DNA of 37,970 nt from Thermoanaerobaculia bacterium (lineage in GTDB: Bacteria; Acidobacteriota; Thermoanaerobaculia; Multivoradales; JAGPDF01): the NCBI GenBank assembly GCA_044230215.1, contig JBGARM010000001.1, positions 1-37,970 of the forward strand, given 5' to 3'. A program made the translations under genes and the position numbers. Position 1 is the stretch's first letter; each line of letters opens with the position of its first letter. The notes beneath the pieces were generated by a model, which worked only from the letters and a program-made list of their open reading frames with translations, did not search any database and was not told the origin of the DNA. Shown in pieces: positions 3,089-28,874 of this stretch.

Positions 3089-7601
<4,513 letters not shown>

Positions 7602-7605
<4 letters not shown>

Positions 7606-8162: not shown

Positions 8163-8172
8163 ACGGAGGTCG

Positions 8173-10524: not shown

Positions 10525-10531
10525 AGCGGTA

Positions 10532-11434: not shown

Positions 11435-12411
11435 ATTTCCAGCTCCCTTTCATGCCGGAGCAGGCTTCGGCCGGCGCCAGCGAAGTCGACAACCTGACCC
11501 TGTTCCTCGTCGGCATGGGCACCTTCTTCACCGTGCTCATCGCCCTCATGGTCATCGTCTTCGCGATCCGGTACCGCAGGAAGGCCGGCAACCAGGTCGG
11601 CAGCAATTTCGAGAACTCGGCCTTCCTCGAGATCACCTGGACGGTCATTCCGCTGCTCATCGCCCTCTTCTCGTTCGGTTGGGGCGTCAAGGTCTTCTTC
11701 CGCCTCTATCGTCCGCCGGCGAACGCGATCGAGTACCAGGTCACCGGCAAGCAGTGGATGTGGAAGATCCAGCATCCGACCGGCCAGCGCGAGATCAACG
11801 AGCTCCACGTGCCGATCGGTCAGCCGACGCGCCTGGTGATGACTTCCGAGGACGTCATTCACAGCTTCTTCGTGCCGGCCTTCCGGGCCAAGGCCGATGT
11901 GCTGCCCGGGCGTCAGTCGTCCATCTGGTTCACCCCGACCAAGCTCGGCCGCTACCACATCTTCTGCACCGAGTTCTGCGGCACCGAGCACTCGGGAATG
12001 ATCGGCTGGCTGACGGTGCAGTCGCAGGAGGAGTATCAGGCCTGGCTCGCTGCCGCCCCGGCGCCGAAGGCGCCGTCCTCCGACGGCGGGCTGTTGTTCG
12101 CCCAATACGCCTGCAACACCTGCCACAAGCCGGGCCCGGGCGGGCGCGGTCCGGTCCTCCAGGGCATCTATGGCACCGAGGTCGCGCTCGCCGATGGCGG
12201 CAAGGCCCGGGTCGACGACGCCTATCTGCGCGAGTCGATCCTGATGCCCTCCGCGAAGATGGTGCAGGGCTACGAGGCGATCATGCCCTCCTTCCAGGGC
12301 CAGGTCAGTGAAGAGGCTCTGCAGCAGCTGATCAGCTACATCAAGAGCCTGTCGCCCGAGAACGCCGCGGCGGCGGGATCCAATCCGGATTCCCAGGGGA
12401 TGACCCGATGA
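11431..12411 (+). CDS. coxB: Cytochrome c oxidase subunit II with fused C-terminal cytochrome c domain (caa3-type)
   Basis: ATGA overlap with the sco1 stop. Two N-terminal TM helices. CuA site HSFFVPAF...[13 protein letters not shown]-terminal CNTCH heme motif. Confidence 0.92.
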
Positions 12412-14075
12412 ACGCAACTGCCACCGCTCCGACGCCCGCCGACTTGGCCGAGCGGCCGAACTTCCTCACCGCCGAGCACGGCCTGAAGTCCTGGCTGCTG
12501 ACGCTCGACCACAAGCGGGTCGCGATCCTCTACCTGATCTCGGTGAGCTGCTACTTCCTGCTCGGCGGCATCTTCGCCATGCTGGTGCGGCTCGAGCTCA
12601 TGACGCCGGTCGGCGATCTCATGCTGCCGGACACCTACAACCGGGTGTTCACCGGCCACGGCGTCACCATGGTCTTCTTCTTCCTCATTCCGGCGATCCC
12701 CGGCATTCTCGGCAACTTCCTCATCCCGCTGATGATCGGCGCCAAGGACGTGGCCTTCCCGCGGTTGAATCTCGCCAGCTGGTACCTCTACATGACCGGC
12801 GGCGCGATGATGCTCATCGGCGTGCTCCATGGCGGCGTCGACACCGGCTGGACGTTCTATCCGCCCTACAGCACTTCGTACACGACCACCAACGTCCTGA
12901 TCGTCGGCATCGGCGTCTTCATCAACGGCTTCTCGTCGATCCTCACCGGCTTGAACTTCATGGTCACCGTGCACCGGATGCGCTGCCCGGGCATGACCTG
13001 GTTCCGCCTGCCGCTGTTCATCTGGGGCCAGTACGCGACCAGCCTGATCATGGTCCTCGGCACGCCGGTGGTCGCCATCACCCTGCTGCTGCTGGTCTTC
13101 GAACGCCTCTTCCACCTCGGCATCTTCGATCCGGCGAAGGGCGGCGATCCGATCCTCTTCCAGCACCTGTTCTGGTTCTACTCCCACCCGGCGGTCTACA
13201 TCATGATCCTGCCGTCGATGGCGGTGATCTCCGAGCTCATCGCCTGCTTCTCGCGCAAACGGATCTTCGGCTATCACTTCGTCGCCTTCGCCTCGATCGG
13301 CATCGCCGTCCTGGGCTTCGTGGTCTGGGGCCACCACCTCTACGTCTCGGGCCAGTCGGTCTACGCCGGCGCGATCTTCTCGTTGCTGACGATGCTGGTG
13401 GCGATCCCCTCGGCGGTGAAGGTGTTCAACTGGTCGATGACGCTCTACCAGGGCTCGGTCTCGCTCGAGACGCCGATGCTCTACGCCCTCGGGTTCATCG
13501 GGCTGTTCACGATCGGCGGCCTGACCGGCGTCTTCCTCGGCACCTTGGGGTTCGACGTCCACGTCCACGACACCTACTTCGTCGTCGCCCACTTCCACTA
13601 CGTCATGGTCGGCGGCACGATCATGGGCTATCTCGGCGGGCTGCACTTCTGGTGGCCGAAGATCACCGGCCGTCTCTACCCGGAATTCTGGGCGAAGATC
13701 TCGGCCCTGCTGGTGTTCGTCGGCTTCAACCTGACCTTCTTTCCGCAGTTCCTGCTCGGCTACATGGGCATGCCGCGCCGCTACCACGCCTATCCGCCGG
13801 AGTTCCAGGTGCTGAACATCCTGTCGACGGCCGGCGCCTCGGTGCTGGCGCTCGGCTTCGTCCTGCCGACGATCTACTTCCTCTGGTCGCTGAAGAGCGG
13901 CAAGCTCGCCGGCAACAACCCCTGGAACGCCCGCGGCCTCGAGTGGGAGACGACGTCGCCGCCGCCGACCGAGAACTTCACCTTCGCGCCGAGCGTGTCG
14001 CGTGAGCCCTACGACTATTTCGAGGCGGCCGAAGAGGCCGCCGGGCGCGTGGTTCCTGCCGCGCGGCCGCACTGA
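12408..14075 (+). CDS. coxA: Cytochrome c oxidase subunit I (heme-copper oxidase, A-type)
   Basis: [25 protein letters not shown] and [12 protein letters not shown] signatures. ATGA overlap with the coxB stop. Confidence 0.95.
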
Positions 14076-15093: not shown

Positions 15094-15672
15094 TTGCGGT
15101 TCGCCAACGCGAGCCTCCTGGACCTCCTGCTCGAGCTCCAGACGCTCGACCGCGTGCCGCGCAGCGGCTATTTCCTGCGCGGCATCTCCGACTGCGAGTC
15201 GGTCTCCGAGCACACTTTTCATCTCGCCATGCTGGTCTGGCTCCTCGCCGGCGAAGAGCCCGGACTCGACCGCGGCCACGCTGTCGAGCTGGCGCTGATG
15301 CACGACCTGGCCGAGCTCCGGATCGGCGATCTGCCGCGCACTGCCACGACCTATCTCCCCGCCGACGTGAAGCATGCCGCCGAGCGGCGGGCGGCGGCGG
15401 ACATCCTCGCCCCCGCCGACCCCAGGGCCAACGCTCTCTACGAGGAGTACGAGGAGGGCGCCTCGACCGAGGCCTTGTTCGTTCGCGCCTGCGACAAGCT
15501 GCAGCTGATGATCAAGGTGACGGTCTACGAGAGCTGGGGGCACCGCGGCCTGGCCGAGTTCTGGGGCAACCCGGCGAATTTCCCGCCGTCCGACTTCGCG
15601 TCGATCGCGCGCCTCTTCCGCAGCCTGCAGGAGCGTGCCGCCGCGCGCCCAGCCGCGCATCCCACCGACTAG
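15094..15672 (+). CDS. HD-domain phosphohydrolase (YfbR-like 5'-nucleotidase family)
   Basis: H..HD..D signature (SEHTFHLAML, LMHDLAELRIGD, ACDKLQ). There is no ATG in frame; the proposed TTG start at 15094 lies 11 nt after the coxD stop, so the start is uncertain. Confidence 0.65.
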   Translation: MRFANASLLDLLLELQTLDRVPRSGYFLRGISDCESVSEHTFHLAMLVWLLAGEEPGLDRGHAVELALMHDLAELRIGDLPRTATTYLPADVKHAAERRAAADILAPADPRANALYEEYEEGASTEALFVRACDKLQLMIKVTVYESWGHRGLAEFWGNPANFPPSDFASIARLFRSLQERAAARPAAHPTD

Positions 15673-17423
15673 AGGAGTTTCGCCGGAATCCAGCCGCGCA
15701 GGGCGTTGATCAACAGAATCCGCCCGGCGCGCCGCAGGTCGTCCCGGGTCAGCAGCGCCTCCTTGACCTTCCCGCGCTCGAGCAGCGAGTGGCGGAAGAC
15801 GCCCGCCAGGAGTCCGCTTTCGCGCGCCGGAGTGAGACGCTCGCCGGAGATCTCGAGTACGAGATTCGTGCGCGTCCCTTCGGTGAGCTCGCCGCGTTCG
15901 TTCCACAGAAGGGCCTCGTCCGCGCCCGTCGTGCGCGCCGCGGCAAGCGCGACGTCGTAAACCGCGCGGTTCGTCGTCTTGTGAAAGAGCGCGACCGTCC
16001 GGGAGTCGACCGGAACGTCGGCGAGCACCACGCGCCATGCGCGGCGTTCGCGACGAAAAGGCTGGCTGGTAAAGGAAAGGGCTCCATCGGGGGCGAGCTC
16101 GAGACGGATGCGCTGACGTTGCGTCTCTTGGCCGTCGAAGGCGGCGAGGCCGCTCTCGACGACGGTGCGCCAGGCCCTCTCGTCGCAGTCGAATCCGAAG
16201 TAGGCAGCCGAGGCCGCGAGGCGGGCGAGGTGCTTTTCGAGCAGGGCGACGCCGCAGCGCGGGCGCCAGAGCATCGTCTCGAAGAGGGCGAATGACGGTT
16301 GGGTGTCGCCGAAGGCACGCGCCTTGGCGAGGCATTCCTGGTACTCCGCCGCCGGCGTCGAATCCCAGACCACGCCGCTGCCGACTCCGTACGAGAGCGT
16401 GCCGGCGGCGCGGTCGACGACTGCGGTGCGGATCGCGACCGAGAAGCTCGCGCGCCGTGTCGGGGCCGCCCAGCCGATCGCGCCGCAGTACACTCCCCTG
16501 GGCGACTTCTCCAGGCGGGCAATCCAGTCCATCGTGCGCGCCTTCGGCGCGCCGGTCACCGAAGCGCAGGGAAAGAGGGCGGCAAAGATCTCCGGCAGCT
16601 GCGCGCGGCTCCGCGCGGACACCGTCGAGGTCATCTGCCATACGGTCGGGTAGCGCTCGAGAGCGAACAGACCCGCGACGGCGACACTGCCGGGTTCGGC
16701 GATCCGCCCGAGATCGTTGCGGACCATGTCGACGATCATCAGATTCTCGGCGCGCTCCTTGGCCGAGCCGGCGAGCTCCGCGGCCTGCCTGCCATCCTCC
16801 TCGGCAAAGCGGCCGCGTAGCCGGGTTCCCTTCATCGGGCGCATCTCCAGGTGATCGCCGTTGCGGCGGAAGAAGAGCTCCGGCGAGAGCGACACGATCG
16901 CGGTGTCGCCGCAATCGAGAAAGGCAGCGTGCGGCGCCAGGCTCGCGGGCGCCAGGCTCCAGAAAAGCCCCTCGGCGTCGCCGGCGAACCGGGCGCGCAT
17001 CGGAAAGGTGAAGTTGACCTGGTAGGTCTCCCCCGCGGCGATCGCCCCGCGAATCGCCGCCAGCGCGGCGGCATGCTCCGAGCCCTCGAGGAGCGGCGAG
17101 AGTCCGGCGCGGTGCATCGGCTCGGCGGCGGGCGGGGCGCTCATCGCGTCCGGCGGCGTGAAGACGGTGAAGGCGGCCAGCAGCCCGGCCGCCGGCGCGC
17201 GCACGACCAACGCCGGATCGAAGGCCGGAGCCGCCTCGTAGGTGACGTATCCGACCGCCCAGAGGCCGTCCGCGGTGGCGAGCTCGACGCGTTCGAGCAG
17301 ACCGGACATCTCCGCCAGGCTCCTGGCGCCGATGCGCTCCACCGGCGACCGGAAGCGCCACCAGCGCGTTTCCCGGCCGTCGTCGGGTGCCCGCAGGATG
17401 GCGCTGGCGGGGGCTTCGTTCAA
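15669..17423 (-). CDS. pabB: Bifunctional aminodeoxychorismate synthase component I (PabB) / aminodeoxychorismate lyase-like (PabC, class IV aminotransferase fold) fusion
   Basis: Chorismate-binding motifs (SPELFFRR, MKGTRLRG, AENLMIVDMVRNDLGRI, VTGAPKARTMDWI, GVYCGAIGW). These are followed by a class-IV-fold tail (LFETMLW..., FHKTTNRAVYD, WNERGELTEGTRTNL). The proposed TTG start at 17423 overlaps the upstream stop (TTGA). Confidence 0.78.
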   Translation of the reverse strand: MNEAPASAILRAPDDGRETRWWRFRSPVERIGARSLAEMSGLLERVELATADGLWAVGYVTYEAAPAFDPALVVRAPAAGLLAAFTVFTPPDAMSAPPAAEPMHRAGLSPLLEGSEHAAALAAIRGAIAAGETYQVNFTFPMRARFAGDAEGLFWSLAPASLAPHAAFLDCGDTAIVSLSPELFFRRNGDHLEMRPMKGTRLRGRFAEEDGRQAAELAGSAKERAENLMIVDMVRNDLGRIAEPGSVAVAGLFALERYPTVWQMTSTVSARSRAQLPEIFAALFPCASVTGAPKARTMDWIARLEKSPRGVYCGAIGWAAPTRRASFSVAIRTAVVDRAAGTLSYGVGSGVVWDSTPAAEYQECLAKARAFGDTQPSFALFETMLWRPRCGVALLEKHLARLAASAAYFGFDCDERAWRTVVESGLAAFDGQETQRQRIRLELAPDGALSFTSQPFRRERRAWRVVLADVPVDSRTVALFHKTTNRAVYDVALAAARTTGADEALLWNERGELTEGTRTNLVLEISGERLTPARESGLLAGVFRHSLLERGKVKEALLTRDDLRRAGRILLINALRGWIPAKLL

Positions 17424-18481
17424 ATGCGGGCCGCCGCCTGCCGGGTCGCGCGCGCCACCGCCAGCCGTTCGGCGACGACCTGGTCGGCGACACGAAAGGG
17501 CGGCGCACTCTGGCACTCGGCCCGATCGAGGAGCTCCGCGAGATCCGCGCCGATCCGCTGCACCCGCGCCACGATGCCGGTCTCGTCGAGGACTCCGGTT
17601 TCTAATAGCACCGAGAGGAGTCCACCGGCATTGACCACGAAGTCGGGTGCGTAGAGCACGCCGCAACGGTGAAGCTCGAGACCGACTTCGGGCGAGGCCA
17701 GCGGATTGTTCGCGGCGCCGACGATCGCCGCGCAACGCAAGTCGGCGACCGTTGTCGGCGTGAGGACGCCGCCCGCGGCGTTGGGCGAAAAAATGTCGCA
17801 ATCGGCGGCGAGGATCTCCTCCGGGGCCACGGCCCGGGCACCGGTCGCGCGTACGACGGCGTCCTGGCGGCCACGAACGGTGTCCGTCACAATCAGGCTG
17901 ACCCCCTTACCAGCAAGCTTTTCGGCAAGCCGACCGCCTACCTCGCCTAGCCCCTGAAGCGCCACGGTGCAGGCGGAAAGAGGCTTGCCGAGGCGCCCGG
18001 CGACGACCTCCATTGCCGCGACGACACCGATCGCGGTCAGGTCGGAGGCATCGACTCCAGCCGTCGCCGGCGTATGGCCGATGTGCTTCGTGACGCCACC
18101 CATGAGCGCGAGATCGGCGGCGTCGATCCCCATGTCGCCGCCGGTGAAGAACCGTCCGCCGAGCTCCTCGACCGCGTTGCCGAAGGCGAGGAGCAGCTCC
18201 GGCGTCTTCTCGCGCAGCGGGTCGCCACAGATCACCGCCTTGCCGCCGCCGCACGGCATGCCGGCGAACGCGGCCTTGGCCGTCATGGCGTGGGAGAGCC
18301 GCAGGGCGTCCTCGATGGCCTCCTCGAAGACAGGGTAGAGCCGCATGCGGGTGCCGCCGATGGCGCGCCCGAGGGTCGTGTCGTGAATGGCGATCACCGC
18401 CCGCAGGCCGACCGCCGGCTCCTGGACGATCAGCAGGCGCTCGTGGCCGAGCTCGCGAGCGAGGTCGAGGACGGCGGTCAC
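17420..18481 (-). CDS. Leu/Val/Phe dehydrogenase (Glu/Leu/Phe/Val dehydrogenase family)
   Basis: LRAVIAIHDTTLGRAIGGTRMRLY, PCGGGKAVICGDP and the Rossmann motif LQGLGEVGG. A GTG start at 18481 gives a 353-aa protein of normal length and overlaps the vapC stop (GTGA). Confidence 0.85.
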   Translation of the reverse strand: MTAVLDLARELGHERLLIVQEPAVGLRAVIAIHDTTLGRAIGGTRMRLYPVFEEAIEDALRLSHAMTAKAAFAGMPCGGGKAVICGDPLREKTPELLLAFGNAVEELGGRFFTGGDMGIDAADLALMGGVTKHIGHTPATAGVDASDLTAIGVVAAMEVVAGRLGKPLSACTVALQGLGEVGGRLAEKLAGKGVSLIVTDTVRGRQDAVVRATGARAVAPEEILAADCDIFSPNAAGGVLTPTTVADLRCAAIVGAANNPLASPEVGLELHRCGVLYAPDFVVNAGGLLSVLLETGVLDETGIVARVQRIGADLAELLDRAECQSAPPFRVADQVVAERLAVARATRQAAARI

Positions 18482-18903
18482 GGCTGGTGGACTTCGTCGA
18501 CGCCGGGGGCGACCACCGTCAGGCCCTGGAGACGAGCGGCGGCGGCGAGTCGTTCGTCGTAGCAGAGAAAACAACCGGGAGGCGGAGTGAATTCGAGCGC
18601 CGTCGCGAGATGGATCGCATCGAGCGTACGCAGCGTTGCCGGGCCCAGGGTCTCCGCCTTGTCGAGGATCGCTTCGGTGGGGCGGCGCAGGTGCACCCGA
18701 GTCAAGTAGCGACGCGCTTCGAACATCGCAACCTCGTCGGCGTGGGCGCGGCGCAAAGCGCGTTGCACTTCGACCCGGGCGATCGACGACGAGACCACAT
18801 CGGGCCGGCGGTCGAGAAATCTGCGCAGCGCCGAGGTCTCGCTCTCCTCGAGGAAGAGCTTGATGAGCGCCGACGCGTCCGCGTAGACGAACGTGTCGGT
18901 CAA
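18478..18903 (-). CDS. vapC: PIN-domain toxin VapC
   Basis: 141 aa. Conserved acidic positions are visible (VYADASAL, FLEESE, LDAIHLATAL, CYDERL). The TTG start overlaps the vapB stop (TTGA). Confidence 0.85.
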   Translation of the reverse strand: MTDTFVYADASALIKLFLEESETSALRRFLDRRPDVVSSSIARVEVQRALRRAHADEVAMFEARRYLTRVHLRRPTEAILDKAETLGPATLRTLDAIHLATALEFTPPPGCFLCYDERLAAAARLQGLTVVAPGVDEVHQP

Positions 18904-19217
18904 AACTCTTCCTCCTCCCTCATCTCGATCAGGATCTGGCTCAACGATTTCGCCCCGGGCAACGGCGGCAGGGGTGGGTTGTTGCGCAGGAACTCGCCCA
19001 GATCGCCTTGCGCCGGAATGACCCGGCCATCCGCGATCATCCGGGCCAGGGAATTCTCGTTGTCGTCGGGCAGCGGCACCAGCAGCGCCACCGGCCGGCC
19101 ATGCTCGGTGACCTCCAGTCGCTCCCCCTCCTTCACCCGATCGAGATAGACGGAGAGGTTCTGCCGCAGCTCGCGGACGCCGACCTGCGGGGTCGGAGTC
19201 TTCGCGTTCTCGCTCAT
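18900..19217 (-). CDS. vapB: Phd/YefM-type antitoxin (VapB)
   Basis: 105 aa. VGVRELRQNLSVYLDRVKEGERLEVTEHGRPVALLVP is a classic Phd/YefM N-terminal domain. Immediately upstream of the PIN gene. Confidence 0.85.
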   Translation of the reverse strand: MSENAKTPTPQVGVRELRQNLSVYLDRVKEGERLEVTEHGRPVALLVPLPDDNENSLARMIADGRVIPAQGDLGEFLRNNPPLPPLPGAKSLSQILIEMREEEEF

Positions 19218-19259: not shown

Positions 19260-20252
19260 TCAGTGCGGCAGCAGATAGGCGACCGCGAAGCCGATCTGGG
19301 CGGCCATCATCATCAGGTACATCTGCTTCCAGCTCGGGTGATTCTCGGTACGCGTCAGGTCGTCGGGATCGCGCAGGATCAGGTAGACCGTGTAGCAGCC
19401 CCAGACGGTCAGCAGCGCTCCCAGCGCGGTCAGCGCGTTCTGGTTGCCGGTGAGGATCGCGTGCGCCGGATTCTGCGGGTCCGGCAGATGGGCGAAGAGC
19501 GGCACCAGGAGCCAGGGGAAGACGAAGAACGGCGCGATGATCCAGGCGGCTTTCTTGGGCCCGTGAAGGATCGGCAGGGTCTTGCAGCCGCCGGCGGCGT
19601 CGCCCTTGATGTCGGCGAAGTCCTTGGTCGATGCCGCCCCGACCAGGAAGAGCATGAAGATAGAGCCCAGCGCCCAGGGCTCCCAATGGCCGACGCGGGC
19701 GACCATCGCCCAGCCGGCGACTTTGAGCAGGCAGCCGCGCGGAATGGCGATCGTCCAGTTCGCCCACATCCCGCGCGCCTTCGTGCGGCCCCACGAGGGT
19801 ACCGAGTAGATCAGGGTGAAGATCATCCCGGCGAGGTAGATGTAGAACGTCTCGTGCCAGGGAAGGGGCGCGCCGATCTTCGCCGCCAGAGTGGTGTGGG
19901 GGAAAACCACCACCGCCCAGGTCGGGACGAGAGCCAGGGCGTAGAAGACCCAGGTGAAGATCCATCCCTCGCGCAGGCTGAGTGCGCCGGTGACCAGCGG
20001 CCGCCCCGGCTTGTTGACCCGGTCGATCTCGAGGTCGGTGATCTGGTTGATCGCGTTCGACGCCGCGTTCATGAAGCTCGCGCAGAGCGAGCCCAGCGCC
20101 ACCGTGAGGATCACGGAGAGGGTGAGATGGCGCGCCGGATCCGGATTGTGCACCGAGCCCCAGGCGCAGATCGAGCCCGAGATGATTCCCAGGAGCGGCG
20201 GCAGCAGGGTGAAGGGGCGCGACAGCTGGACGTAGAGATTGGTCTTTTTCAT
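19260..20252 (-). CDS. UbiA-superfamily prenyltransferase (ChlG/BchG/DGGGPS-like clade)
   Basis: 330-aa polytopic membrane protein. First Asp-rich motif NQITDLEIDRVNKPGRPLVTG. Also IYSVPSWGRTKARGMWAN and a second motif KDFADIKGDAAGGCKTLPILHG. Confidence 0.88.
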   Translation of the reverse strand: MKKTNLYVQLSRPFTLLPPLLGIISGSICAWGSVHNPDPARHLTLSVILTVALGSLCASFMNAASNAINQITDLEIDRVNKPGRPLVTGALSLREGWIFTWVFYALALVPTWAVVVFPHTTLAAKIGAPLPWHETFYIYLAGMIFTLIYSVPSWGRTKARGMWANWTIAIPRGCLLKVAGWAMVARVGHWEPWALGSIFMLFLVGAASTKDFADIKGDAAGGCKTLPILHGPKKAAWIIAPFFVFPWLLVPLFAHLPDPQNPAHAILTGNQNALTALGALLTVWGCYTVYLILRDPDDLTRTENHPSWKQMYLMMMAAQIGFAVAYLLPH

Positions 20253-20296: not shown

Positions 20297-21838
20297 TCAG
20301 TCGAAATGCCGGACGCGCGGCCACAGACCAGCCAGGTCGGCCAGCGGCCGCCGCACGATCCAGATCGGCAGCTCGTCCTCGTACGGCATGCAGTCGCGGC
20401 AGTCGAAGGTCGCACCGAGCTCGACCTCCGCGAAGAGCTTGCCCAGGCTAAAGGCGTCGTCCCCGAGAACGAGCAGAACCTCACCCGAGCAGGCGCCGAG
20501 GCCCCAGAGGTACCAGCTGTTGTGCGCCGAGATCGCCGGCGGCAGGTGGAGCTCGCCGCCGAAGTAGGCGACGGCAGAGGCCTCGCCGTAGTTCTGCCCG
20601 AAGACGCAGGCGCTTCGGCGCTCGTCTCGAGTGAGCCGGTCCGCCGCGACGCCGACGGCCTCGGCGAGACCGCGCCACTCCTGCATGTCGGCGAAGAACT
20701 GCGGCAGCCGGCCGAGCGACTTTCGCTCGTCGGTCCCCGGCTCCTGCCCCAGAGCGCGCGCGTAGCGCACGTAGGCATCGACCGGCAGGATCGGGCGAGC
20801 GAGCGGCGCGAGAGCGAGTCCCGAGAGCACGACCGAGCCGACTGCGGCGGCGCGCCAGACGAAGCCGCCGCGCCGCCCGCGCGTCCACGCTTCGATCGCT
20901 ACCGCTCCGGCGGCCCAGAGCATCGGGTACGCCGGCGCCAGATAGTAGGGCTTTGCGGCGGTCGAGAGCATCACGACGAGGATGGCGAGGTAGGCGACAC
21001 CGAGGGAGCGCCACGGACGAAAGCGCAGCGCGAACAGCAGCGCCAGGAGACCTGAGATCCACACGACGGCGTGCAGAGGTCCGGTCTGCAGGAGCTGCGC
21101 GGTCAGAAAGTCGACGGGCGCGAGCGCAACGTTCTTGCTCTGGCTGGCGTTGGTCATGAATTCGCGGGTCGGCCAGCCGTGCAGGTGCTGCCAGACGAGG
21201 TGGGGCGCGAAGAGGAGTCCGGCGAGGGCGCCGCCGAGCCAGAGGTAGCGGCTGCGCAGAAGGTCGAAGCGCCGCGTCGCGACCACCCCCAAGGCCAGGC
21301 CGAAGCCGAGGAAGAGCATGCTGATCTTGTTCAGCAGGCCGAGCCCGGCAACCGCGCCGAAGGCCAACCAGAGACGCTCGTCGCCGCCGTCGAGGAGGGC
21401 CGCGGCGAGCCGGCAGGCGAGCGCCCAGAAAAGCAGGTCGAAGACGTTCATCGACAGAACCGAGGTGAGCCCCAGGACGATCGGCGAGAGTCCGACCGCC
21501 AGGCCGGTCAGCGCGACGGCGAAGTTGCCGCCGCCCAGGCGCCGGGCGAGCGAGCCCGAGATTGCGACCGCACCCGCACCGGCGAGGGCCGCGAGGATGC
21601 GAATCGCCAGCAGCGAGTCGCCAAAGAGGAGCGTCCAGAGCGCGGTCATCGCCGCGATCAGCGGCGGGTGGTCGACATAGCCCCAGTCGAGCCGCGCCGC
21701 ACAGGCGAGGTAGTAGAGCTCGTCACGAAAGATGCCGTAGGTGGTGGCGAAGATCGCGTGCAGGAGGAAGACGGCGACCGCCGGCCCCCAGAGGGCCAGC
21801 CGATTCCAGCTCGCTTCCTGTCGTGGTTCCGCGGTCAT
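20297..21838 (-). CDS. GT-C fold glycosyltransferase, family 39 / ArnT-PMT-like (polyprenyl-phosphate-sugar dependent)
   Basis: ATG at 21838. 513 aa with many TM helices. N-terminal loop motif FRDELYYLACAARLDWGYVDHPPL (the DExxY type of ArnT/PMT enzymes). Soluble C-terminal domain. Confidence 0.85.
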   Translation of the reverse strand: MTAEPRQEASWNRLALWGPAVAVFLLHAIFATTYGIFRDELYYLACAARLDWGYVDHPPLIAAMTALWTLLFGDSLLAIRILAALAGAGAVAISGSLARRLGGGNFAVALTGLAVGLSPIVLGLTSVLSMNVFDLLFWALACRLAAALLDGGDERLWLAFGAVAGLGLLNKISMLFLGFGLALGVVATRRFDLLRSRYLWLGGALAGLLFAPHLVWQHLHGWPTREFMTNASQSKNVALAPVDFLTAQLLQTGPLHAVVWISGLLALLFALRFRPWRSLGVAYLAILVVMLSTAAKPYYLAPAYPMLWAAGAVAIEAWTRGRRGGFVWRAAAVGSVVLSGLALAPLARPILPVDAYVRYARALGQEPGTDERKSLGRLPQFFADMQEWRGLAEAVGVAADRLTRDERRSACVFGQNYGEASAVAYFGGELHLPPAISAHNSWYLWGLGACSGEVLLVLGDDAFSLGKLFAEVELGATFDCRDCMPYEDELPIWIVRRPLADLAGLWPRVRHFD

Positions 21839-21903: not shown

Positions 21904-23244
21904 TCAGGCCAGCAGGGCGGCTCCGCCGGCGGCGAGCAGGGCTCCGGCGAGGCTGTTGAGGAAGTTGACCGCCTCGTTGTCGAGCAGACCACGCTTCTCC
22001 AGCGTCGCGCCGACGACACTTTCGAGTGTCGTGGCGACGAAGGCGGCGACGACGACGGCAGCGATCCCGATCGCCGGGTAGAGCCCGAGGGCGGCGCCCA
22101 GGCCGGCGAGCAAGAGCGCGGCCGCCATTCCCGCGGCGGTGCCCTCGAGCGAGACAGCGCCGTCGGTGCCGCGCGGCACGGCGCGAAGGGTGGTGATGAG
22201 GTAGGTGCGACGGCCGAAGGCCTTGCCGACCTCGGACGACACCGTGTCGAAAGCAGCGGTGGCGAAAGCGCCGGCGAGCGCGAGCGCAAACAGTGTGGGA
22301 TAGGCGGTCGTGGCGGCGAAGATCGCGGCCAGCGCCGGAATCGACGTCTTCGACAGCGCGTTGCCCGGCCCGCGCCGGCCGCCCTTCTCCTGCGCGATCC
22401 CGGCCGCTGCCTTGCGGGCGTAACCGAGCTTGGTCGCCGCCGTACCGAGGACGAAGAAGGCAAAGAGCAGGGCGAACGACGCGCCGCCACCGAAGGCCCA
22501 GATCGTCGTGCCGAGGAAGATCCCGACCGCTGCGCCCGCGCGTCCCACACCCTTCGTCGCATAGGCAGCCACGGCGAGCACGATGTTCACCGCCAGGCCG
22601 ATCGCCAGGCCGCGCACGAAGGCCGGAGAGCCGACGACCGCCCAGTTTCCCTGGGTGAGCGTGAGGCAGTAGAGCACTGCGGCGGTGACCAGCGGCACGC
22701 CGAGATTGTCGTCGAGCCCCAGGGGCTGCGACTCGAGGAGCGCCGCGAAGAGCGCGGCGGCGAAGGCGATGGCGACGGCGAAGACGAAGCCGTAGCGACC
22801 GGGTGCGGACCACAGGAGCAGGATCGCCGCGGCGAGAGTGCCGAAGAGAACGAACGCCAAGGACCCGGCCCAGCTCTTGGCCGGATTCCAGGGCAGCCGA
22901 CGTCGCCCGATCGCCATGCCGACAATCGACGCCATGCCGTCGCCGAAGGCGAGGATCCCCCAGGTCGCGGCGGCCACCTCGAGGCGGCGCGCAAAGACGA
23001 CGATCAGCAGCAACACGGCGATCGGGTAGAGGACGATGCCGAGGGCGAAGCCGCTCTGCGTCTCGCCTTCGCGCCAGAGCGAGCGGCCGCCGATGCGCGG
23101 CAGCACGAACGCGTTGAAGAGAACGGCGGTGAGCGCCGCCAAGGCGGCAAGCGGAGCCCCCAACGGCCGCACGGCGAAGGCGAAACCGCCAACCGCCATG
23201 TGCACCGCCTTGCGGCCGAGCTCTCCCGGCGTCAGGCCGGCCAT
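21904..23244 (-). CDS. Fusion protein: polyprenol/phytol-kinase-like domain (CTP-transferase-1 superfamily, VTE5/dolichol-kinase type) + DUF92/TMEM19 domain (VTE6 phytyl-phosphate-kinase type)
   Basis: N-terminal half: GRKAVHMAVGG and FGDGMASIVGMAIGRRRLPWNPAKSWAGSLAF. C-terminal half: GTAATKLGYARKAAAGIAQEKGGRRGPGNALSK, FDTVSSEVGKAFG and PRGTDGAVSLEGTAAG. The start is taken as ATG 23244, but ATG 23199 is also possible. Confidence 0.72.
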   Translation of the reverse strand: MAGLTPGELGRKAVHMAVGGFAFAVRPLGAPLAALAALTAVLFNAFVLPRIGGRSLWREGETQSGFALGIVLYPIAVLLLIVVFARRLEVAAATWGILAFGDGMASIVGMAIGRRRLPWNPAKSWAGSLAFVLFGTLAAAILLLWSAPGRYGFVFAVAIAFAAALFAALLESQPLGLDDNLGVPLVTAAVLYCLTLTQGNWAVVGSPAFVRGLAIGLAVNIVLAVAAYATKGVGRAGAAVGIFLGTTIWAFGGGASFALLFAFFVLGTAATKLGYARKAAAGIAQEKGGRRGPGNALSKTSIPALAAIFAATTAYPTLFALALAGAFATAAFDTVSSEVGKAFGRRTYLITTLRAVPRGTDGAVSLEGTAAGMAAALLLAGLGAALGLYPAIGIAAVVVAAFVATTLESVVGATLEKRGLLDNEAVNFLNSLAGALLAAGGAALLA

Positions 23245-24230
23245 GCACCCGTCTCCCGGAGCCAGGCGAGCGTCGCCTCGAGCCCGGCGCGGAGGCTCCG
23301 CGGGCGATGGCCGATCTCGGCGATCGCGGTCGCCGAGTCGTAGGCCCAATCATGGCGGTAGATCTCCACCAGGTCGGGCGTGAGCCGCGGCACGCCGCCG
23401 GTGAGGCGCGCCCAGGCCTTCATGGCCGCACCGCTCGCCGTCGCCACGAAGTCCGGCATGCGCAGCCGCGGCACGCGAATGCCGCCGAGCTCGGCTACCT
23501 GGCGATAGAGCTCGCCCTGGGTGACGTTCTCTCCACCGAGCATGTAGCGGCGGCCGGTGGGCCCCTGTTCGAGGGTCGCGACGATGCCGGCAGCGACATC
23601 GTCGACGAAGACATAGTTCCAGCGCCGCTCGGCCTTGCCCACCAGCGCCGGCAGGCGGCCGTGCGCCAGATCGAGGAGGTGGCGCACGAGGATGTTGCCT
23701 TCCGTGAGCTCGCCGGGACCGTAGATCACCCCGGGATAGACGACCGACAGCGGCGCGCCCTCGGCGATGGCGCGCCGGGCGCCCATGTCGGAGATCGTCT
23801 TGGTGCGCTGGTAGTCGTTGATCCAGGTCCGCGGCCTGCTCTCGGCCCGCTCGTCGAGCTCGCCTCCGGCGGCACCTTCGGTCGGACCGAGGGCGATGAA
23901 GCTCGAGACGTAGACGACCCTGGCGACCCTCGCCTCGGCGGCCGCCGCCAGGACGTTCTCGAGTCCGCCGATGTTGACGCGGTCGAACTCCGCCGCCGGG
24001 GCGTCGATCTTGACCAGCGCCGCGGCGTGCAGCACGGCGTCGCAGCCGGCAGCGCCGGAGGCGAGGCTCGGCAGGTCGGTGACGTCGCCGGCGACGAAGT
24101 CGACGCCCGCCGGAAAGCGCTCGCGCGACGCCCCCGGACGCACGAGTAGACGAAGCTCGTGGCGCGGCGCCAGCGCGGCGACAGTCCGGCGACCGAGGAA
24201 CCCGGTCGCTCCGGTGACCAGGATCTTCAT
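23232..24230 (-). CDS. NAD(P)-dependent epimerase/dehydratase/reductase (extended SDR)
   Basis: MKILVTGATGFLGRRTV Rossmann motif. Catalytic YQRTK. The ATG at 24230 overlaps the upstream stop (ATGA). Confidence 0.85.
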   Translation of the reverse strand: MKILVTGATGFLGRRTVAALAPRHELRLLVRPGASRERFPAGVDFVAGDVTDLPSLASGAAGCDAVLHAAALVKIDAPAAEFDRVNIGGLENVLAAAAEARVARVVYVSSFIALGPTEGAAGGELDERAESRPRTWINDYQRTKTISDMGARRAIAEGAPLSVVYPGVIYGPGELTEGNILVRHLLDLAHGRLPALVGKAERRWNYVFVDDVAAGIVATLEQGPTGRRYMLGGENVTQGELYRQVAELGGIRVPRLRMPDFVATASGAAMKAWARLTGGVPRLTPDLVEIYRHDWAYDSATAIAEIGHRPRSLRAGLEATLAWLRETGAWPA

Positions 24231-25204
24231 GCGGCTGGCCCTCCTGCCGAAGGCACCGCCCGATCGCGATGGGCGCGTGCTTCGCAGAACAGGTCCGCGA
24301 GCGCCGCGTCGACGCCGCGCTCGGGCTCCCAGCCCAGCGCCCGCAGGCGCGAAGCGTCGCCGCAAAGGCGCGGCACATCGACCGGGCGCAGCTTCTCCGG
24401 GTCTTCGGCGCAGCGCACCTCGAGACCCGACAGGGCGATCAGGCGTCCCAGCAGCTCGGCAATCGAATGGTCGACGCCGCTCGCCAGGTTGAGGACTGTC
24501 CCGGGTTGCGGCTCCTCCGCGAGGAGGGCCAGCGCCGCGACGGCGTCATCGACATGCAGGAAGTCGCGGCGCGCGGAGAGATTGCCGACCGAGAGCAGTG
24601 GCGGTGCGCCGTGCTCGATCGCCGCGAGCTGCGCCGCGAAGGAGGGTAGCGCGAAGCTCGCTGCCTGACCGGCGCCGATCAGGTTGAACGAGCGCACGAC
24701 CGTGGCGCCGGCGGCGAGCGCCAGGCGCTCGGCCGATGCCTTGGTCAGCGCATACGGGTTGCGCGGCGAGAGCGGCCGAAGCTCGGAGATCGGCTGCGCC
24801 TCGTCCGGCACCAGACCGTAGACCTCGGCGCTCGACATGAAGAGCACCGGGCAGCCGCGGGCGGCCGCCAGGATGTGCTCCACGCCGAGCACGTTGATGG
24901 CGAAGTACTCCGGAATCCGCCGCCACGATTCGCCGACATGCGAAAGCGCCGCGAGGTGCACGATGCGATCGGGAGCGAAGCGGTCGACCGCCGCGGCCAT
25001 TGCCGCGGCGTCGCGCACGTCGACCGCGAAGCGATCGGCCGAAAACGGCAGCTCTTGCTGGTCGATCGCCACCGCGCCAACCCGATGGCCCTGCGCCGCG
25101 AGCCGCCCCGCCAATCGCCGCCCCACGAAGCCGGTGGCACCGGTGACGAGGATGCGGGAGGTCACGGGACGGGACTCGGACGGCGGCGGCTCTTGGAAAG
25201 GCAA
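24227..25204 (-). CDS. rmd: GDP-4-keto-6-deoxy-D-mannose reductase-like SDR (Rmd-like)
   Basis: ILVTGATGFVGRRL, YALTK, SFNLIGAGQ and SVGNLSARRDFLHVDD resemble Rmd. It sits directly downstream of gmd. The start is uncertain: TTG 25204 or GTG 25165. Confidence 0.7.
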   Translation of the reverse strand: MPFQEPPPSESRPVTSRILVTGATGFVGRRLAGRLAAQGHRVGAVAIDQQELPFSADRFAVDVRDAAAMAAAVDRFAPDRIVHLAALSHVGESWRRIPEYFAINVLGVEHILAAARGCPVLFMSSAEVYGLVPDEAQPISELRPLSPRNPYALTKASAERLALAAGATVVRSFNLIGAGQAASFALPSFAAQLAAIEHGAPPLLSVGNLSARRDFLHVDDAVAALALLAEEPQPGTVLNLASGVDHSIAELLGRLIALSGLEVRCAEDPEKLRPVDVPRLCGDASRLRALGWEPERGVDAALADLFCEARAHRDRAVPSAGGPAA

Positions 25205-25211
25205 CCGCGCG

Positions 25212-26180
25212 CTACTTTCGCGCGATGCGCTGACGCCAGTAGTTGAGCAGGTCTTCGAGCGTCTGGTCGAACGGGATCTGCGGCTCCCAGCCGGTATCGG
25301 CGTGGAACTTCGAATAGTCGCCGATCAGCACTTCGACGTCCGAGGGACGCAGCCGCGCCGGGTCGGTCTCGACCTTCACTTCCACCTTCGCCAGGGCGAT
25401 GAGCTTGTCGAGCATCGCGCGGATGGTGATCGCCTTTCCCGAAGCCAGGTTGTAGACCTCGCCCGGCTTGCCCTTCTCCGTCGCCAGGACGTAGCCGCGC
25501 ACCATGTCGCGCACGTCGGTGAAGTCCCGCACCGCGTCGAGATTGCCGACCTTGATGATCGGGGCGGCCTTGCCGGCCTCGATCGTCGCCACCTGCCTGG
25601 CGAAGTTCGAGGTCACGAAAACCTCGCCGCGGCGCGGGCCGGTGTGGTTGAAGCCGCGCGTCCGGATCGCGCGGATCCCGTAGCTCATGAAGTACTGATA
25701 GGCGAGAAAATCCTGCGTCACCTTGGAGACCGCATAGGGCGACAGCGGCCGCAGCGGGTTGGTCTCCTTGATCGGCACTTCGTTCGGCAGCACCAGTCCG
25801 TACTCCTCCGAGGAGCAGGCGATCTGGATTGCCGGATCGAGGCCGAGCGAGCGCACCGCCTCGAAGATGTTGGTCTGGCCGGAGATGTTGTCGGTCAGCG
25901 TCTGCAGCGGCGACACCCAGGACGACGGCACGAAGCTCTGTGCCGCAAGGTGGTAGATCGCGTCGGGTCGGCTGGCCTCGAGGGCGTTGCGCACCGCGGT
26001 CATGTCGGAGAGATCGCACTCCAGAAGGCGGATCCTGCCCTCGATCGCCTCGATGTTCTCGCGCCGGCTGCGCCAGCGATAGGTGCCGAAGACCTCGACT
26101 CCCGGGCGATCGGCGAGGAAGTGCTCGGCGAGATGCGAACCCGCGAAGCCGGTGATGCCGGTGATCAGTACGCGTTGCAT
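25212..26180 (-). CDS. gmd: GDP-mannose 4,6-dehydratase (short bacterial type)
   Basis: VLITGITGFAGSHLAE, SPYAVSK, GFNHTGPRRGEVFVTSNFARQVA and VGNLDAVRDFTDVRD. AAGGAG RBS upstream of ATG 26180. Confidence 0.85.
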   Translation of the reverse strand: MQRVLITGITGFAGSHLAEHFLADRPGVEVFGTYRWRSRRENIEAIEGRIRLLECDLSDMTAVRNALEASRPDAIYHLAAQSFVPSSWVSPLQTLTDNISGQTNIFEAVRSLGLDPAIQIACSSEEYGLVLPNEVPIKETNPLRPLSPYAVSKVTQDFLAYQYFMSYGIRAIRTRGFNHTGPRRGEVFVTSNFARQVATIEAGKAAPIIKVGNLDAVRDFTDVRDMVRGYVLATEKGKPGEVYNLASGKAITIRAMLDKLIALAKVEVKVETDPARLRPSDVEVLIGDYSKFHADTGWEPQIPFDQTLEDLLNYWRQRIARK

Positions 26181-26196: not shown

Positions 26197-27039
26197 CTAA
26201 GTCCCAAGGTGACTGGTGAGCCCTTCGTGCCAGGACTCGACGGTGCGCCCCGCAAGTTTCTCGAAACGATCGACCGCCAGCACCGAATACGCCGGCCGCG
26301 GCGCCGGCCGCGGCGCTTCCGCGGTGGTGATCGGAGTGACCTCGATCCCCGGTCCGAGCCGCCGCGCGATCTCCCTGGCGAACTCGCACCAGGAGACTGC
26401 CGGCCGATTCTGATAGTGCACCAGCCCGGTGGTGCCCCATTCTCCCAGATCCGACACGGCCGTGGCCAGGAAGGGGGCCCAGGTGGGGGCGCCGAACTGG
26501 TCGTCGACGACACGGAAGCTCTTCTGCCCGCTGCGGATGCGGCCGGCGATCGTGTCGACGAAGTTCGCCCCTCCCCGGCCGAAGACCCAGCTGGTCCGGA
26601 CGACCAGCGACCGGTCGCTCGCCAGCGCCTGGCGCTCGCCCTCGAGCTTGCTCCGGCCGTAGCTCGACTGCGGCGCGGTCGGATGGTCCTCGGTGTAGGG
26701 CGCGGTCGCGCGGCCGTCGAAAACGTAATCGGTGGAAAGGTGGATGAGCCGGGCGCCGGACGCCTCCGCCGCGCGGACGAGATCTCCGACCGCGGCGCCG
26801 TTGACCGCGAGAGCGCGCTCCGGCTCGGCTTCGCAGAGATCGACCTGGGTGAACGCAGCGCAGTTGACGATCAGCGCCGGCCGGAAGGCCGTGCAGATCT
26901 CGTCGATGCGAGCGCGGTCGGTGACATCGCCCTGGCCGTGCGAGAGTCCGAGCACCGGCCAGCCGCGGCTGCGCGCGTCCTGCAGCAGCTGCCGATAGAA
27001 CGGCGCATCGACGTCGCCGTCGTCGAGCCACGCCCGCAC
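26197..27039 (-). CDS. dTDP-4-dehydrorhamnose reductase (RmlD)-like protein with a degenerate N-terminal dinucleotide-binding motif
   Basis: IVNCAAFTQVD, HLSTDYVFDG, YGRSKLEGE, RTSWVFG and DDQFGAPT are colinear with RmlD. The proposed GTG start at 27039 gives a normal length, but the GxxGxxG position reads LDDGDVDAPF. Confidence 0.65.
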   Translation of the reverse strand: MRAWLDDGDVDAPFYRQLLQDARSRGWPVLGLSHGQGDVTDRARIDEICTAFRPALIVNCAAFTQVDLCEAEPERALAVNGAAVGDLVRAAEASGARLIHLSTDYVFDGRATAPYTEDHPTAPQSSYGRSKLEGERQALASDRSLVVRTSWVFGRGGANFVDTIAGRIRSGQKSFRVVDDQFGAPTWAPFLATAVSDLGEWGTTGLVHYQNRPAVSWCEFAREIARRLGPGIEVTPITTAEAPRPAPRPAYSVLAVDRFEKLAGRTVESWHEGLTSHLGT

Positions 27040-27126
27040 GGTGAACGCGGCGGTGCCCTCGCGCGTACCTGCCCAGCAGTACGACGCCTGCTCGCCGAGC
27101 GGCTGGAGGAGATCGCGCCGGCGGAA

Positions 27127-27768
27127 GTGCGGCAGCTCTTCCGGAATCCCTTCCTGACCGGGGAGCAGATCGATCGCCTGCTGTCCTCGAATCGCCTCCT
27201 TTCCGCCTACGAAGTCCGCATGGAGGCGGCGCGCCATCCGCGGACGCCCCAGCTCGCCGCACTGCGGTTCATCCCCGGTCTCTACTGGGCGGATCTGGTC
27301 CGTATCGGCCTCGACATGCGGCTCCATCCGGTCGTCCGGAGGGCGGCGGAGACCCGACTGGTCGAGCGTCTGCCGGCGCTCTCGGTCGGCGAGAAGATGG
27401 CCATCGCACGCAGCGCGGCGCCAGGCGTACTGGCGACGCTGCGCAACGATCCGACGCCGCGGGTCATTGCCGCGCTGCTCGAGAACCCCCGTCTCACCGA
27501 AGGCCTGCTGTTGCCGCTCCTGGCCTCGGAGGGGGCGTCGCCGTCGGTGCTGGGCGTGGTCGCCGGCAGCCCGAAATGGAGCGTGCGCTATCCGGTCCGT
27601 CTCGCCCTCTGCCAGAACACCCGCACGCCTCTCGACCGGGTCCTGCTCCTGCTGCCGCTGCTCAAGCGCGGCGATCTCTGCAGCGTGGCGGCGAATCCGC
27701 ACCTCCGGCTGCCGGTGCGCCGCCGGGCGCAGCTCCTGGCCCGCGGCGGCCAGGAACTGCGAATTTGA
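27127..27768 (+). CDS. Hypothetical all-alpha repeat protein (paralog of the C-terminal half of 28880-29896)
   Basis: 3' third of ORF 26083-27768. Repeated NP-containing helical units (LENPRLTEGLLLPLL, LALCQNTRTPLDRVLLLLPLLKRGDL, ANPHLRLPVRRRA). Start uncertain: GTG 27127 lies 15 nt after GGAGGAG, and ATG 27220 is also possible. Confidence 0.5.
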   Translation: MRQLFRNPFLTGEQIDRLLSSNRLLSAYEVRMEAARHPRTPQLAALRFIPGLYWADLVRIGLDMRLHPVVRRAAETRLVERLPALSVGEKMAIARSAAPGVLATLRNDPTPRVIAALLENPRLTEGLLLPLLASEGASPSVLGVVAGSPKWSVRYPVRLALCQNTRTPLDRVLLLLPLLKRGDLCSVAANPHLRLPVRRRAQLLARGGQELRI

Positions 27769-27827
27769 CCCCGATGGACGGGACTCGATACCCTAGTCCG
27801 TCCGGCAGCAAACCTCCCGGTACCGGC

Positions 27828-28874
27828 ATGAGCCAGCCCGTCTCCGAAGAAACGTCGAAGTCAGCCGAAGCGTCCACTGGCCAGAGCCCGAGCCCTTCGT
27901 TCGGCGCCTGGCTGCGGCACCAGCGTGAGGCCCGCAGCGTGTCGATGCGCGAGATCGCCGACAACAGCAAGATCAGCCTGCGCTACCTCGAAGCTCTCGA
28001 ACAGGACCGTTTCGACGTCCTGCCGGCACCGGTCTTCGCGCGCGGGTTCCTGCGCGAGTACGCGCGAGTCGTGGGGCTCAATCCTGACGAGGTCGTGAAC
28101 CTCTATCTCGTCGCCGTCGAGGAGCGCGCCGAGGGCACCCGAAGGGTCGAGCGCGCCAAACCGGTGCGCGCCGAGAGCCTGAGCTCGGCCCCGTCCTCGC
28201 TCGGCTACGGCCTGCTCCTCGGCCTCGCGGTCGTTCTCTTCGTCGGCATCGCGGCCCTGCTTTCGTTCCTCGCCGAGCGCCGTCGCGGCGTTCCCACGGA
28301 ATCCAAGCTCGTAGCTCCGGCGACGATGGTTGCGCCGGCCGAAAGCGTCCCGGCCCCTGCTGCGCTCGTGCCCCCGCCCGCGGTCGAACCGGGGAGCATG
28401 GCAGGAGATTCGACCGGTGCGGCAGCGGCAGCGCCGGCCGCCGGAGCTCCGACGCCTTCCGAGGCTTCCGCCAAGGGGCCCGCTCCCGCCGCCGCGGTCG
28501 CCGCCGACGGCGCTCCCCCCGCTGTTGCCGGCCCCTTCCGCGTCGTCCTCAATTTCAGCCAGGACTGCTGGATGGAGTCGGTGGTCGACGGTATCCGTCG
28601 CACCAGCGAGCTCAAGGCCGCCGGAGAGACGGTCCAGCTCGAGGCCTTCCAGGCGGTCGTGCTCACTCTCGGCAACTCCCGCGCCCTGACCGTCGAAGTC
28701 GACGGCGTGCCGTTCGCCCTGCCCGAGAACTCGACCCGGGTCGTGCGGGACCTGAGGATCGAGCGCCCCGTGCGTCCCAGCCCGGTTTCCGGAGCTGCGA
28801 CGCCGCCTCGCCCCGGACTCACCGTCCCAGCTTCCGGCCGCAGCCCCGCCGATCCTCCGCCGGTCCGTCGCTGA
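27828..28874 (+). CDS. rodZ: RodZ-like cytoskeleton/cell-shape protein (XRE-type HTH, TM helix, DUF4115-like C-terminal domain)
   Basis: HTH region FGAWLRHQREARSVSMREIADNSKISLRYLEALEQDRFDVLPAPVFARGFLREYA. TM helix GLLLGLAVVLFVGIAALLSFL. Ala/Pro linker. C-terminal beta domain (FRVVLNFSQDCWMESVVDG...LTLGNSRALTVEVDG). Confidence 0.8.
   Translation: MSQPVSEETSKSAEASTGQSPSPSFGAWLRHQREARSVSMREIADNSKISLRYLEALEQDRFDVLPAPVFARGFLREYARVVGLNPDEVVNLYLVAVEERAEGTRRVERAKPVRAESLSSAPSSLGYGLLLGLAVVLFVGIAALLSFLAERRRGVPTESKLVAPATMVAPAESVPAPAALVPPPAVEPGSMAGDSTGAAAAAPAAGAPTPSEASAKGPAPAAAVAADGAPPAVAGPFRVVLNFSQDCWMESVVDGIRRTSELKAAGETVQLEAFQAVVLTLGNSRALTVEVDGVPFALPENSTRVVRDLRIERPVRPSPVSGAATPPRPGLTVPASGRSPADPPPVRR

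Follow-up and report, generated by a model that had tools for sequence, protein, structure and literature searches.

A bacterial gene fusing a phytol/dolichol-kinase-like domain to a DUF92 (VTE6-family) domain, linked to a UbiA-family prenyltransferase in Acidobacteriota

In plants, VTE5 and then VTE6 act in succession to yield phytyl diphosphate (PMC5694494, PMC9782597). In archaea, several proteins of arCOG02245 (COG1836, pfam01940), e.g. Mbar_A3310 of Methanosarcina barkeri, carry an additional N-terminal Sec59/dolichol-kinase-like domain (Makarova, Galperin and Koonin 2015; PMC5898192, section 3.4), and a kinase step in isoprenoid metabolism was proposed for these fusions (PMC5898192). Here we analyse a bacterial gene of the same architecture, located on the minus strand at positions 21904-23244 of a 37,970-nucleotide stretch (the window) of contig JBGARM010000001.1 from a Thermoanaerobaculia bacterium (Acidobacteriota; assembly GCA_044230215.1). 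A first reading of the letters of this stretch (the original prediction) had proposed a fusion of a VTE5-like prenol kinase to a VTE6-like prenyl-phosphate kinase. Our analysis confirms that the fusion is a real gene. Judging from the sequence and its conserved context, we put the probability at roughly 60% that the protein phosphorylates a free prenol in two steps to the prenyl diphosphate used by the UbiA-family enzyme of the same operon.

The likeness to the archaeal COG0170-COG1836 fusions, taken from their published description, is close: both domains lie in one open reading frame (ORF) in the same order, with the kinase-like domain N-terminal, and each is a member of the CTP-transferase superfamily carrying conserved aspartates. 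The archaeal genes are, however, linked to the cis-prenyltransferase UppS (PMC5898192), whereas the acidobacterial fusion sits in an operon with a short-chain dehydrogenase/reductase (SDR) and a UbiA gene. The fusion architecture as such is already known from archaea, is common in Acidobacteriota, and is not a new discovery. In plants and cyanobacteria, too, members of the two families supply UbiA-family enzymes (HPT/VTE2, MenA, ChlG) with a diphosphate made from a free C20 prenol, presumably by the same succession of steps, but there VTE5 and VTE6 are separate proteins (PMC5694494, PMC10849223), as the original prediction had stated, and the acidobacterial host is labelled a non-phototroph with no chlorophyll as phytol source. 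Sec59/DOLK, Arabidopsis FOLK and Plasmodium PolK represent the same COG0170 branch of CTP-dependent prenol kinases; unlike the fusion they only monophosphorylate (PMC10849223) and have no fused DUF92 domain. CdsA and CarS, the CDP-diglyceride and CDP-archaeol synthases, belong to the same superfamily (Pfam CTP_transf_1) and share a related acidic-residue motif, but the domains of the fusion are shorter and phosphotransfer rather than CMP transfer would be expected of them. Reviews from 2022 to 2026 name VTE5, FOLK, VTE6 and Plasmodium PolK as the only characterised prenol and prenyl-phosphate kinases (PMC9782597, PMC13022625), all from photosynthetic organisms or their relatives (2026 review, PMC13022625); the prenyl-phosphate kinase still counts as 'missing' in animals and most microbes, and E. 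coli and yeast are reported to have no such kinase activities (PMC9782597).

The fusion gene and its two domains are located as follows:

21904..23244, minus strand: fusion gene, 446 amino acids (aa), VTE5/dolichol-kinase-like domain plus DUF92 (VTE6-family) domain (uninterrupted ORF, homologues, AlphaFold2 model)
22657..23229, minus strand: N-terminal domain, aa 6-196, assigned to the phytol/dolichol-kinase branch (COG0170) of the CTP-transferase-1 superfamily (hhalign, and BLASTP against VTE5)
21940..22590, minus strand: C-terminal domain, aa 219-435, DUF92 / PF01940 / COG1836 (PF01940 E 3.3e-50)

Translation of the minus strand gives 446 codons from an ATG start without internal stop, and all five motifs quoted in the original prediction were found in this single frame: GRKAVHMAVGG (aa 10-20) and FGDGMASIVGMAIGRRRLPWNPAKSWAGSLAF (aa 100-131) in the N-terminal half, and TKLGYARKAAAGIAQEKGGRRGPGNALSK (aa 271-299), FDTVSSEVGKAFG (aa 332-344) and GTDGAVSLEGTAAG (aa 359-372) in the C-terminal half. 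The frame could be extended in 5' direction up to a TTG at 23349, but since homologues are 446-450 aa long, the ATG at 23244 was taken as the start. This ATG is preceded by a GGGAGA located 7 nucleotides (nt) upstream, and the gene overlaps the upstream SDR gene (stop codon at 23232-23234) by 13 nt. The window has about 70% G+C and long ORFs are present in all frames; ORF length therefore proves nothing, and the reality of the gene rests on family matches and conservation. More than 120 clusters show 60-98% identity to the fusion protein at full-length coverage. A search with the N-terminal half returned 2049 clusters (50% identity level, E up to 1e-3), and among the best 150, in which the architecture was checked, at least 71 distinct clusters are clean fusions of the N-terminal domain with DUF92 (410-520 aa). 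A pattern-seeded scan located relatives in 231 GTDB species genomes; in the best 80 at least about 95% of the protein is covered, and nearly all of these 80 are labelled Thermoanaerobaculia, Holophagales or Acidobacteriota (exceptions: one Deltaproteobacteria and two 'uncultured bacterium'). When a distant fused relative (P0275) served as query, all matches came from unclassified 'bacterium' metagenome-assembled genomes (MAGs). In the alignment of homologues the junction of the two halves is a conserved linker. The two halves thus form one gene, and not two, in hundreds of genomes. Public names of the fused relatives are only "DUF92 domain-containing" or "TIGR00297 family", plus one protein called "dolichol kinase/uncharacterized membrane protein" by JGI.

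Comparison with plant VTE5 supports the assignment of the N-terminal half to the phytol/dolichol-kinase branch (COG0170), as judged from sequence profiles. The Arabidopsis VTE5 query shows 100% identity over 238 aa to a protein called "phytol kinase" by JGI (P0295) and 92% identity to a Capsella protein of the same name in UniRef. BLASTP of the fusion protein against P0295 gave 33% identity over 139 aa (E 4e-19), and both proteins carry the motifs GDG(M/I)A..(V/M)G...G....P(W/Y)NP.KSWAGS and ES.P...LDDN(L/I).VPL. A profile-profile alignment (hhalign) of 31 N-domains, fused and stand-alone, with 21 plant VTE5 sequences reached 99.8% probability (E 8e-28, 185 columns, aa 6-196), in agreement with the VTE5-like identity originally proposed. 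The motif columns invariant in the 21 plant sequences are all kept in the N-terminal half: RK..H (R11, K12, H15), GDG.A...G...G (G101, D102, G103, A105, G109, G113), N..KSW.GS (N120, K123, S124, W125, G127, S128), ES (E171, S172) and DDN..VP (D178, D179, N180, V183, P184). Across the N-domain relatives D102, K123, G127, E171, D179 and N180 are invariant. JGI and Tara annotate stand-alone relatives, which are about 200 aa long and share 36-49% identity with the N-terminal half, as "dolichol kinase" or COG0170, and NCBIfam gave no match for the N-terminal half alone.

The C-terminal half is DUF92, as the original prediction held: PF01940 matches with 171.3 bits against a cut-off of 27.5 (E 3.3e-50) and covers model positions 2-251 of 251. 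Over 40 homologues D333, E338, G340, G344, S365, G368 and E408 are invariant, and D422 and N423 are nearly invariant (at least 90%); D333 and D422 correspond to the aspartates of the superfamily's di-metal site. VTE6 of Arabidopsis is encoded at At1g78620. This locus has been placed in COG1836 (PMC3223725), the equivalent of PF01940 (PMC5898192), and via this common Pfam/COG family the sequence evidence supports placing the C-terminal half in the family of phytyl-phosphate kinase VTE6.

The two halves are also related to each other. hhalign aligned them with E 1.4e-3 and superposed their catalytic motifs, pairing D102 with D333, G109 with G340, G113 with G344, ES with ES, DN with DN, and D179 with D422. 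This agrees with the published HHpred relationship between pfam01940 and pfam01148 and its two conserved metal-binding aspartates (PMC5898192). With the conserved residues retained, both halves look catalytically intact. An AlphaFold2 model of the whole chain is all-helical with a mean predicted local distance difference test score (pLDDT) of 87.9 and a predicted template modelling score (pTM) of 0.89; the pTM over the entire chain indicates that the halves pack in a defined way, and the model thus depicts a single compact protein. Searches of the PDB with the single sequence, the full-length profile and the N-domain profile returned no meaningful match (the sole one, to a V-ATPase fragment, has E 0.65 and amounts to noise), and Foldseek with the model returned nothing with E <0.2, only unrelated helical transporters with TM-scores of about 0.15. 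CdsA likewise was absent from the NCBIfam matches of the N-terminal half, from the PDB sequence and profile matches and from the significant Foldseek matches.

The genes around the fusion in the window form a continuous run:

26197-27102 (upper boundary approximate), minus strand: RmlD-like SDR (Pfam)
25212-26180, minus strand: GDP-mannose-4,6-dehydratase-like SDR (Pfam)
24227-25204, minus strand: SDR of sugar-nucleotide type (Pfam)
23232-24230, minus strand: HpnA-like SDR, NAD-dependent epimerase/dehydratase or reductase (PF01370 E 2.5e-27; TIGR03466 200 bits, under cut-off)
20297-21838, minus strand: GT-C glycosyltransferase of the PMT_2 family (PF13231 E 7e-23)
19260-20252, minus strand: UbiA-family prenyltransferase (PF01040 E 2.4e-31)

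Between 27102 and 19260 all genes are read from the minus strand, successive ones either overlapping or leaving short gaps, and the UbiA gene is found, as originally noted, two genes downstream of the fusion, in the order fusion, PMT_2 GT-C, UbiA. Context was counted over 80 related loci, of which 72 had enough flank to score UbiA. Of these 72, 67 have an orthologous UbiA gene on the same strand downstream of the fusion, 58 of them as its direct neighbour; in one locus (L004) the fusion and UbiA genes overlap by 4 nt. Over the related loci UbiA is the better conserved of the two, with a median identity of 74% as against 61% for the fusion. The intervening PMT_2 gene is restricted to 8 of the 67 loci with a downstream UbiA, and these 8 constitute the clade that includes the window. 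In 68/75 loci the gene next to the fusion on its upstream side codes for the HpnA-like SDR, and the three sugar-nucleotide-type SDRs at the head of the run are kept upstream in most. In five relatives (L001, L003, L004, L086, L087) the SDR-fusion-UbiA run starts right after LptD, which hints at an outer-membrane or lipopolysaccharide-related role; in L003 and L004 a GMPPB-like (sugar-1-phosphate) nucleotidyltransferase also precedes it. No LptD was seen among the window ORFs scanned; beyond the RmlD-like SDR, the window has a RodZ-like helix-turn-helix protein on the other strand (27576-28874). The HpnA-like SDR also matches PF07993 ('male sterility'/thioester-reductase NAD-binding) with E 9.5e-22. 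One may speculate that the substrate of this enzyme is a lipid rather than a sugar, for example an isoprenoid aldehyde or thioester that it would reduce to the free alcohol.

The UbiA partner carries both Asp-rich motifs, NQITDLEIDRVNKPGRPL and KDFADIKGDAAGGCKTLP. Its best NCBIfam scores were obtained with archaeal-type prenyltransferase (100 bits), ChlG (87), DGGGP synthase (68) and homogentisate phytyltransferase (57), all far short of the cut-offs, and its closest solved relatives are DGGGP synthase 6m31 (E 6e-12) and chlorophyll a synthase 9sau (E 1e-10). CtaB (heme O synthase), MenA and UbiA proper were considered as identities and rejected, scoring 15-29 bits against 87-100 for the ChlG and archaeal-type models. 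No phosphoribosyltransferase-type UbiA appeared among the NCBIfam or PDB matches (E up to 10). The nearest named families and structures all take C20 prenyl diphosphates as donors, and it is from these affinities that a donor chain of about C20 is suggested.

The same module also occurs in split form. In a distant lineage with 54% GC (L088, 6001-8305) a kinase-like gene ('dolichol kinase', 218 aa), a DUF92 gene (243 aa) and a UbiA gene (301 aa) are separate and adjacent; the DUF92 gene begins with a TTG 2 nt past the kinase-like stop, and identities to the window's proteins are 35%, 30% and 38.5%, respectively. That gene order and partner agree between the fused and the split form is the kind of evidence classically taken to indicate a functional module. 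Upstream of this split module lie a PMT_2 GT-C gene, a gene for a phosphoenolpyruvate (PEP)-utilising enzyme and an FGE-sulfatase-domain gene. Two further loci (L089, L090) have split versions that resemble broken genes. The UbiA link is not universal, since a divergent fusion clade (L085, 7001-8344, unclassified 'bacterium' MAGs), whose neighbours are SIR2 and phosphodiesterase genes, has no UbiA in its vicinity.

Taken as a two-step kinase, the fusion protein would be a polytopic membrane protein with two distantly related CTP-transferase-1 superfamily domains on one chain. The N-terminal half would transfer a phosphate from a nucleoside triphosphate, probably CTP, to a prenol to give the prenyl monophosphate, and the DUF92 half would then convert the monophosphate to the diphosphate. 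The fusion may hold the lipid intermediate in the membrane beside the second active site. The UbiA enzyme of the same operon would join the prenyl chain to an acceptor; a length of about C20, as in geranylgeranyl or phytyl, is probable. The domain identities, the single compact chain with two apparently intact halves, the conserved UbiA link, the C20-type partner and the VTE5/VTE6 precedent count for this two-step phosphorylation. What the sequences show directly are the domain families, the intact conserved residues of both halves, the single ORF and an operon conserved in fused as well as split form. We infer the kinase activities and the prenol-to-prenyl-diphosphate function from family membership and gene context only, and likewise the step order, nucleotide donor, chain length, prenol source and final product.

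Several observations weigh against the two-step phosphorylation. PF01148 (CTP_transf_1) reached only 16.9 bits (E 0.006) on the N-terminal half, under its gathering score of 24, so that the hmmscan check suggested with the original prediction came out for PF01940 but not for PF01148. The model is evidently weak on the VTE5 branch, because it matched just 4 of the 31 related N-domains (E up to 0.01) and the majority of plant VTE5 proteins likewise have no precomputed PF01148 match; the assignment is unharmed, since the profile-profile alignment (99.8%) and the BLASTP match (E 4e-19) are stronger tests. On the C-terminal half TIGR00297 scored 183.2 bits, short of its hypothetical-equivalog cut-off of 205.85, and this half is therefore a family-level relative and not an equivalog by the NCBI criterion. 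A solved structure to anchor the active sites was found neither by sequence profiles nor by Foldseek. Plant VTE6, a phytyl-phosphate kinase yielding phytyl diphosphate, is the sole DUF92 member with known function (PMC5694494, PMC9782597), the archaeal members were predicted merely to perform 'a step requiring kinase activity' (PMC5898192), and no bacterial or archaeal fusion or DUF92 member has been experimentally characterised in published work. The non-phototrophic nature of the host, assumed in the original prediction, agrees with the Thermoanaerobaculia record titles and with the absence of photosynthesis genes from the window; such an organism has no obvious reason to produce free prenol, or to rely on salvage in place of a prenyl-diphosphate synthase. 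Finally, the SDRs, the LptD of relatives and the GT-C of some loci point to envelope glycoconjugates, a setting in which the usual currency would be a polyprenyl monophosphate carrier and not a diphosphate.

This last consideration leads to the main rival, the recycling of a polyprenyl-phosphate carrier for envelope glycosylation. Here the N-terminal half would be an undecaprenol- or dolichol-type kinase restoring the polyprenyl phosphate for the lipid-linked sugar donors of GT-C glycosyltransferases, the UbiA enzyme would load a sugar phosphate on polyprenyl phosphate in the manner of mycobacterial decaprenyl-phosphate phosphoribosyltransferase, and DUF92 would have another role. The 'dolichol kinase' (COG0170) annotations given by JGI and Tara to stand-alone relatives of the N-terminal half speak for it, as do LptD at the head of the operon, with the nucleotidyltransferase and the sugar-nucleotide SDRs, in relatives. 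The PMT_2 GT-C gene, which the window's clade has between fusion and UbiA and L088 close to its split module, would also fit, but it intervenes in just 8/67 loci. Moreover, the UbiA partner is nearest to DGGGP synthase, chlorophyll synthase and homogentisate phytyltransferase without any phosphoribosyltransferase-type match, and an always-present DUF92 half with conserved catalytic residues would be left without a role. Overall we regard carrier recycling as unlikely. Less can be said for a DUF92 half that acts as a cytidylyltransferase like CdsA or CarS and turns prenyl phosphate and CTP into CDP-prenol as an activated prenyl donor: no UbiA enzyme is known to use CDP-prenol. Membership of DUF92 in the CDP-diglyceride synthase superfamily and the retention of both di-metal-site aspartates (PMC5898192; half-to-half alignment) would be compatible with such a reaction, but VTE6, so far the one DUF92 member with a characterised function, reportedly acts as a phytyl-phosphate kinase (PMC5694494, PMC9782597), and we consider the scenario improbable.

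Similarly improbable, in our view, is that one half is a catalytically dead scaffold or dimerisation partner and that only a single phosphorylation takes place. CdsA-type enzymes have been reported as dimers, and a fused paralogue could accordingly be a mere pseudo-dimer partner; the KSWAG of the N-terminal half also has no counterpart to the Glu of the C-terminal VSLEG, which in turn has no Lys. VTE5 itself, however, has KSWAGS, the N-terminal half retains all residues that do not vary among the plant VTE5 sequences, and the DUF92 signature residues are invariant or nearly so over the 40 homologues. A fusion produced by a frameshift or assembly error that joined neighbouring genes might seem to be suggested by the split genes of L088 and by the broken-looking ones of L089 and L090. 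The same architecture in at least 71 independent 50%-identity clusters, the conserved linker, and relatives in 231 species genomes from many studies (with about 95% or more coverage in the best 80) refute it: so many independent assemblies carry the fusion that the chance of an artefact is negligible.

Other genes of the window are listed below:

18900-19217, minus strand: Phd/YefM antitoxin (PF02604 E 9e-10)
18478-18909, minus strand: PIN/VapC toxin (PF01850 E 1e-10)
3089-6205 and 6202-7605, plus strand: Alternative-Complex-III-like subunits (Fer4/molybdopterin and NrfD, respectively)
10532-11434, plus strand: SCO1
11266-12411 and 12408-14075, plus strand: cytochrome oxidase subunit II fused to cytochrome c, and subunit I

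The type II toxin-antitoxin pair (18478-19217, minus strand) lies directly past UbiA and was not seen at the same position in the related loci with gene tables examined. An ORF at 15669-17801 on the minus strand combines chorismate-binding and aminotransferase class IV domains and looks like a PabB-PabC (aminodeoxychorismate synthase/lyase) fusion. As a supplier of an aromatic acceptor this gene is unsupported; its neighbourhood with UbiA is not conserved in relatives. The respiratory genes form a block on the plus strand (3089-14075), and in one related genome (L003) Alternative Complex III genes are likewise found just downstream of UbiA.

Three points go beyond published descriptions, as far as the literature consulted shows: that the fusion is common in Acidobacteriota, that it is coupled near-universally to one UbiA subfamily, and that a split form with the same partner exists. 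A natural single-chain bacterial version would be convenient for the biochemistry and structure of both kinase steps, and may serve as a compact tool to feed cheap prenols into engineered isoprenoid pathways. A more specific proposal, which we offer tentatively and consider doubtful, is a dedicated pathway of non-phototrophic Acidobacteriota in which VTE5-like and VTE6-like kinases and a DGGGP-synthase/chlorophyll-synthase-like UbiA, set in an operon with LptD and sugar-nucleotide SDRs, would build a prenylated envelope lipid or glycolipid of about C20 from free prenol; the prenol would be scavenged as environmental phytol or geranylgeraniol or made by the adjacent HpnA-like reductase. If this were true, the phosphorylation of free prenol would be an obligatory bacterial biosynthetic route and not a salvage side-path. 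The tight and deeply conserved tie to one UbiA subfamily suggests that this lineage, widespread in soil and sediment, makes a prenylated product not yet characterised.

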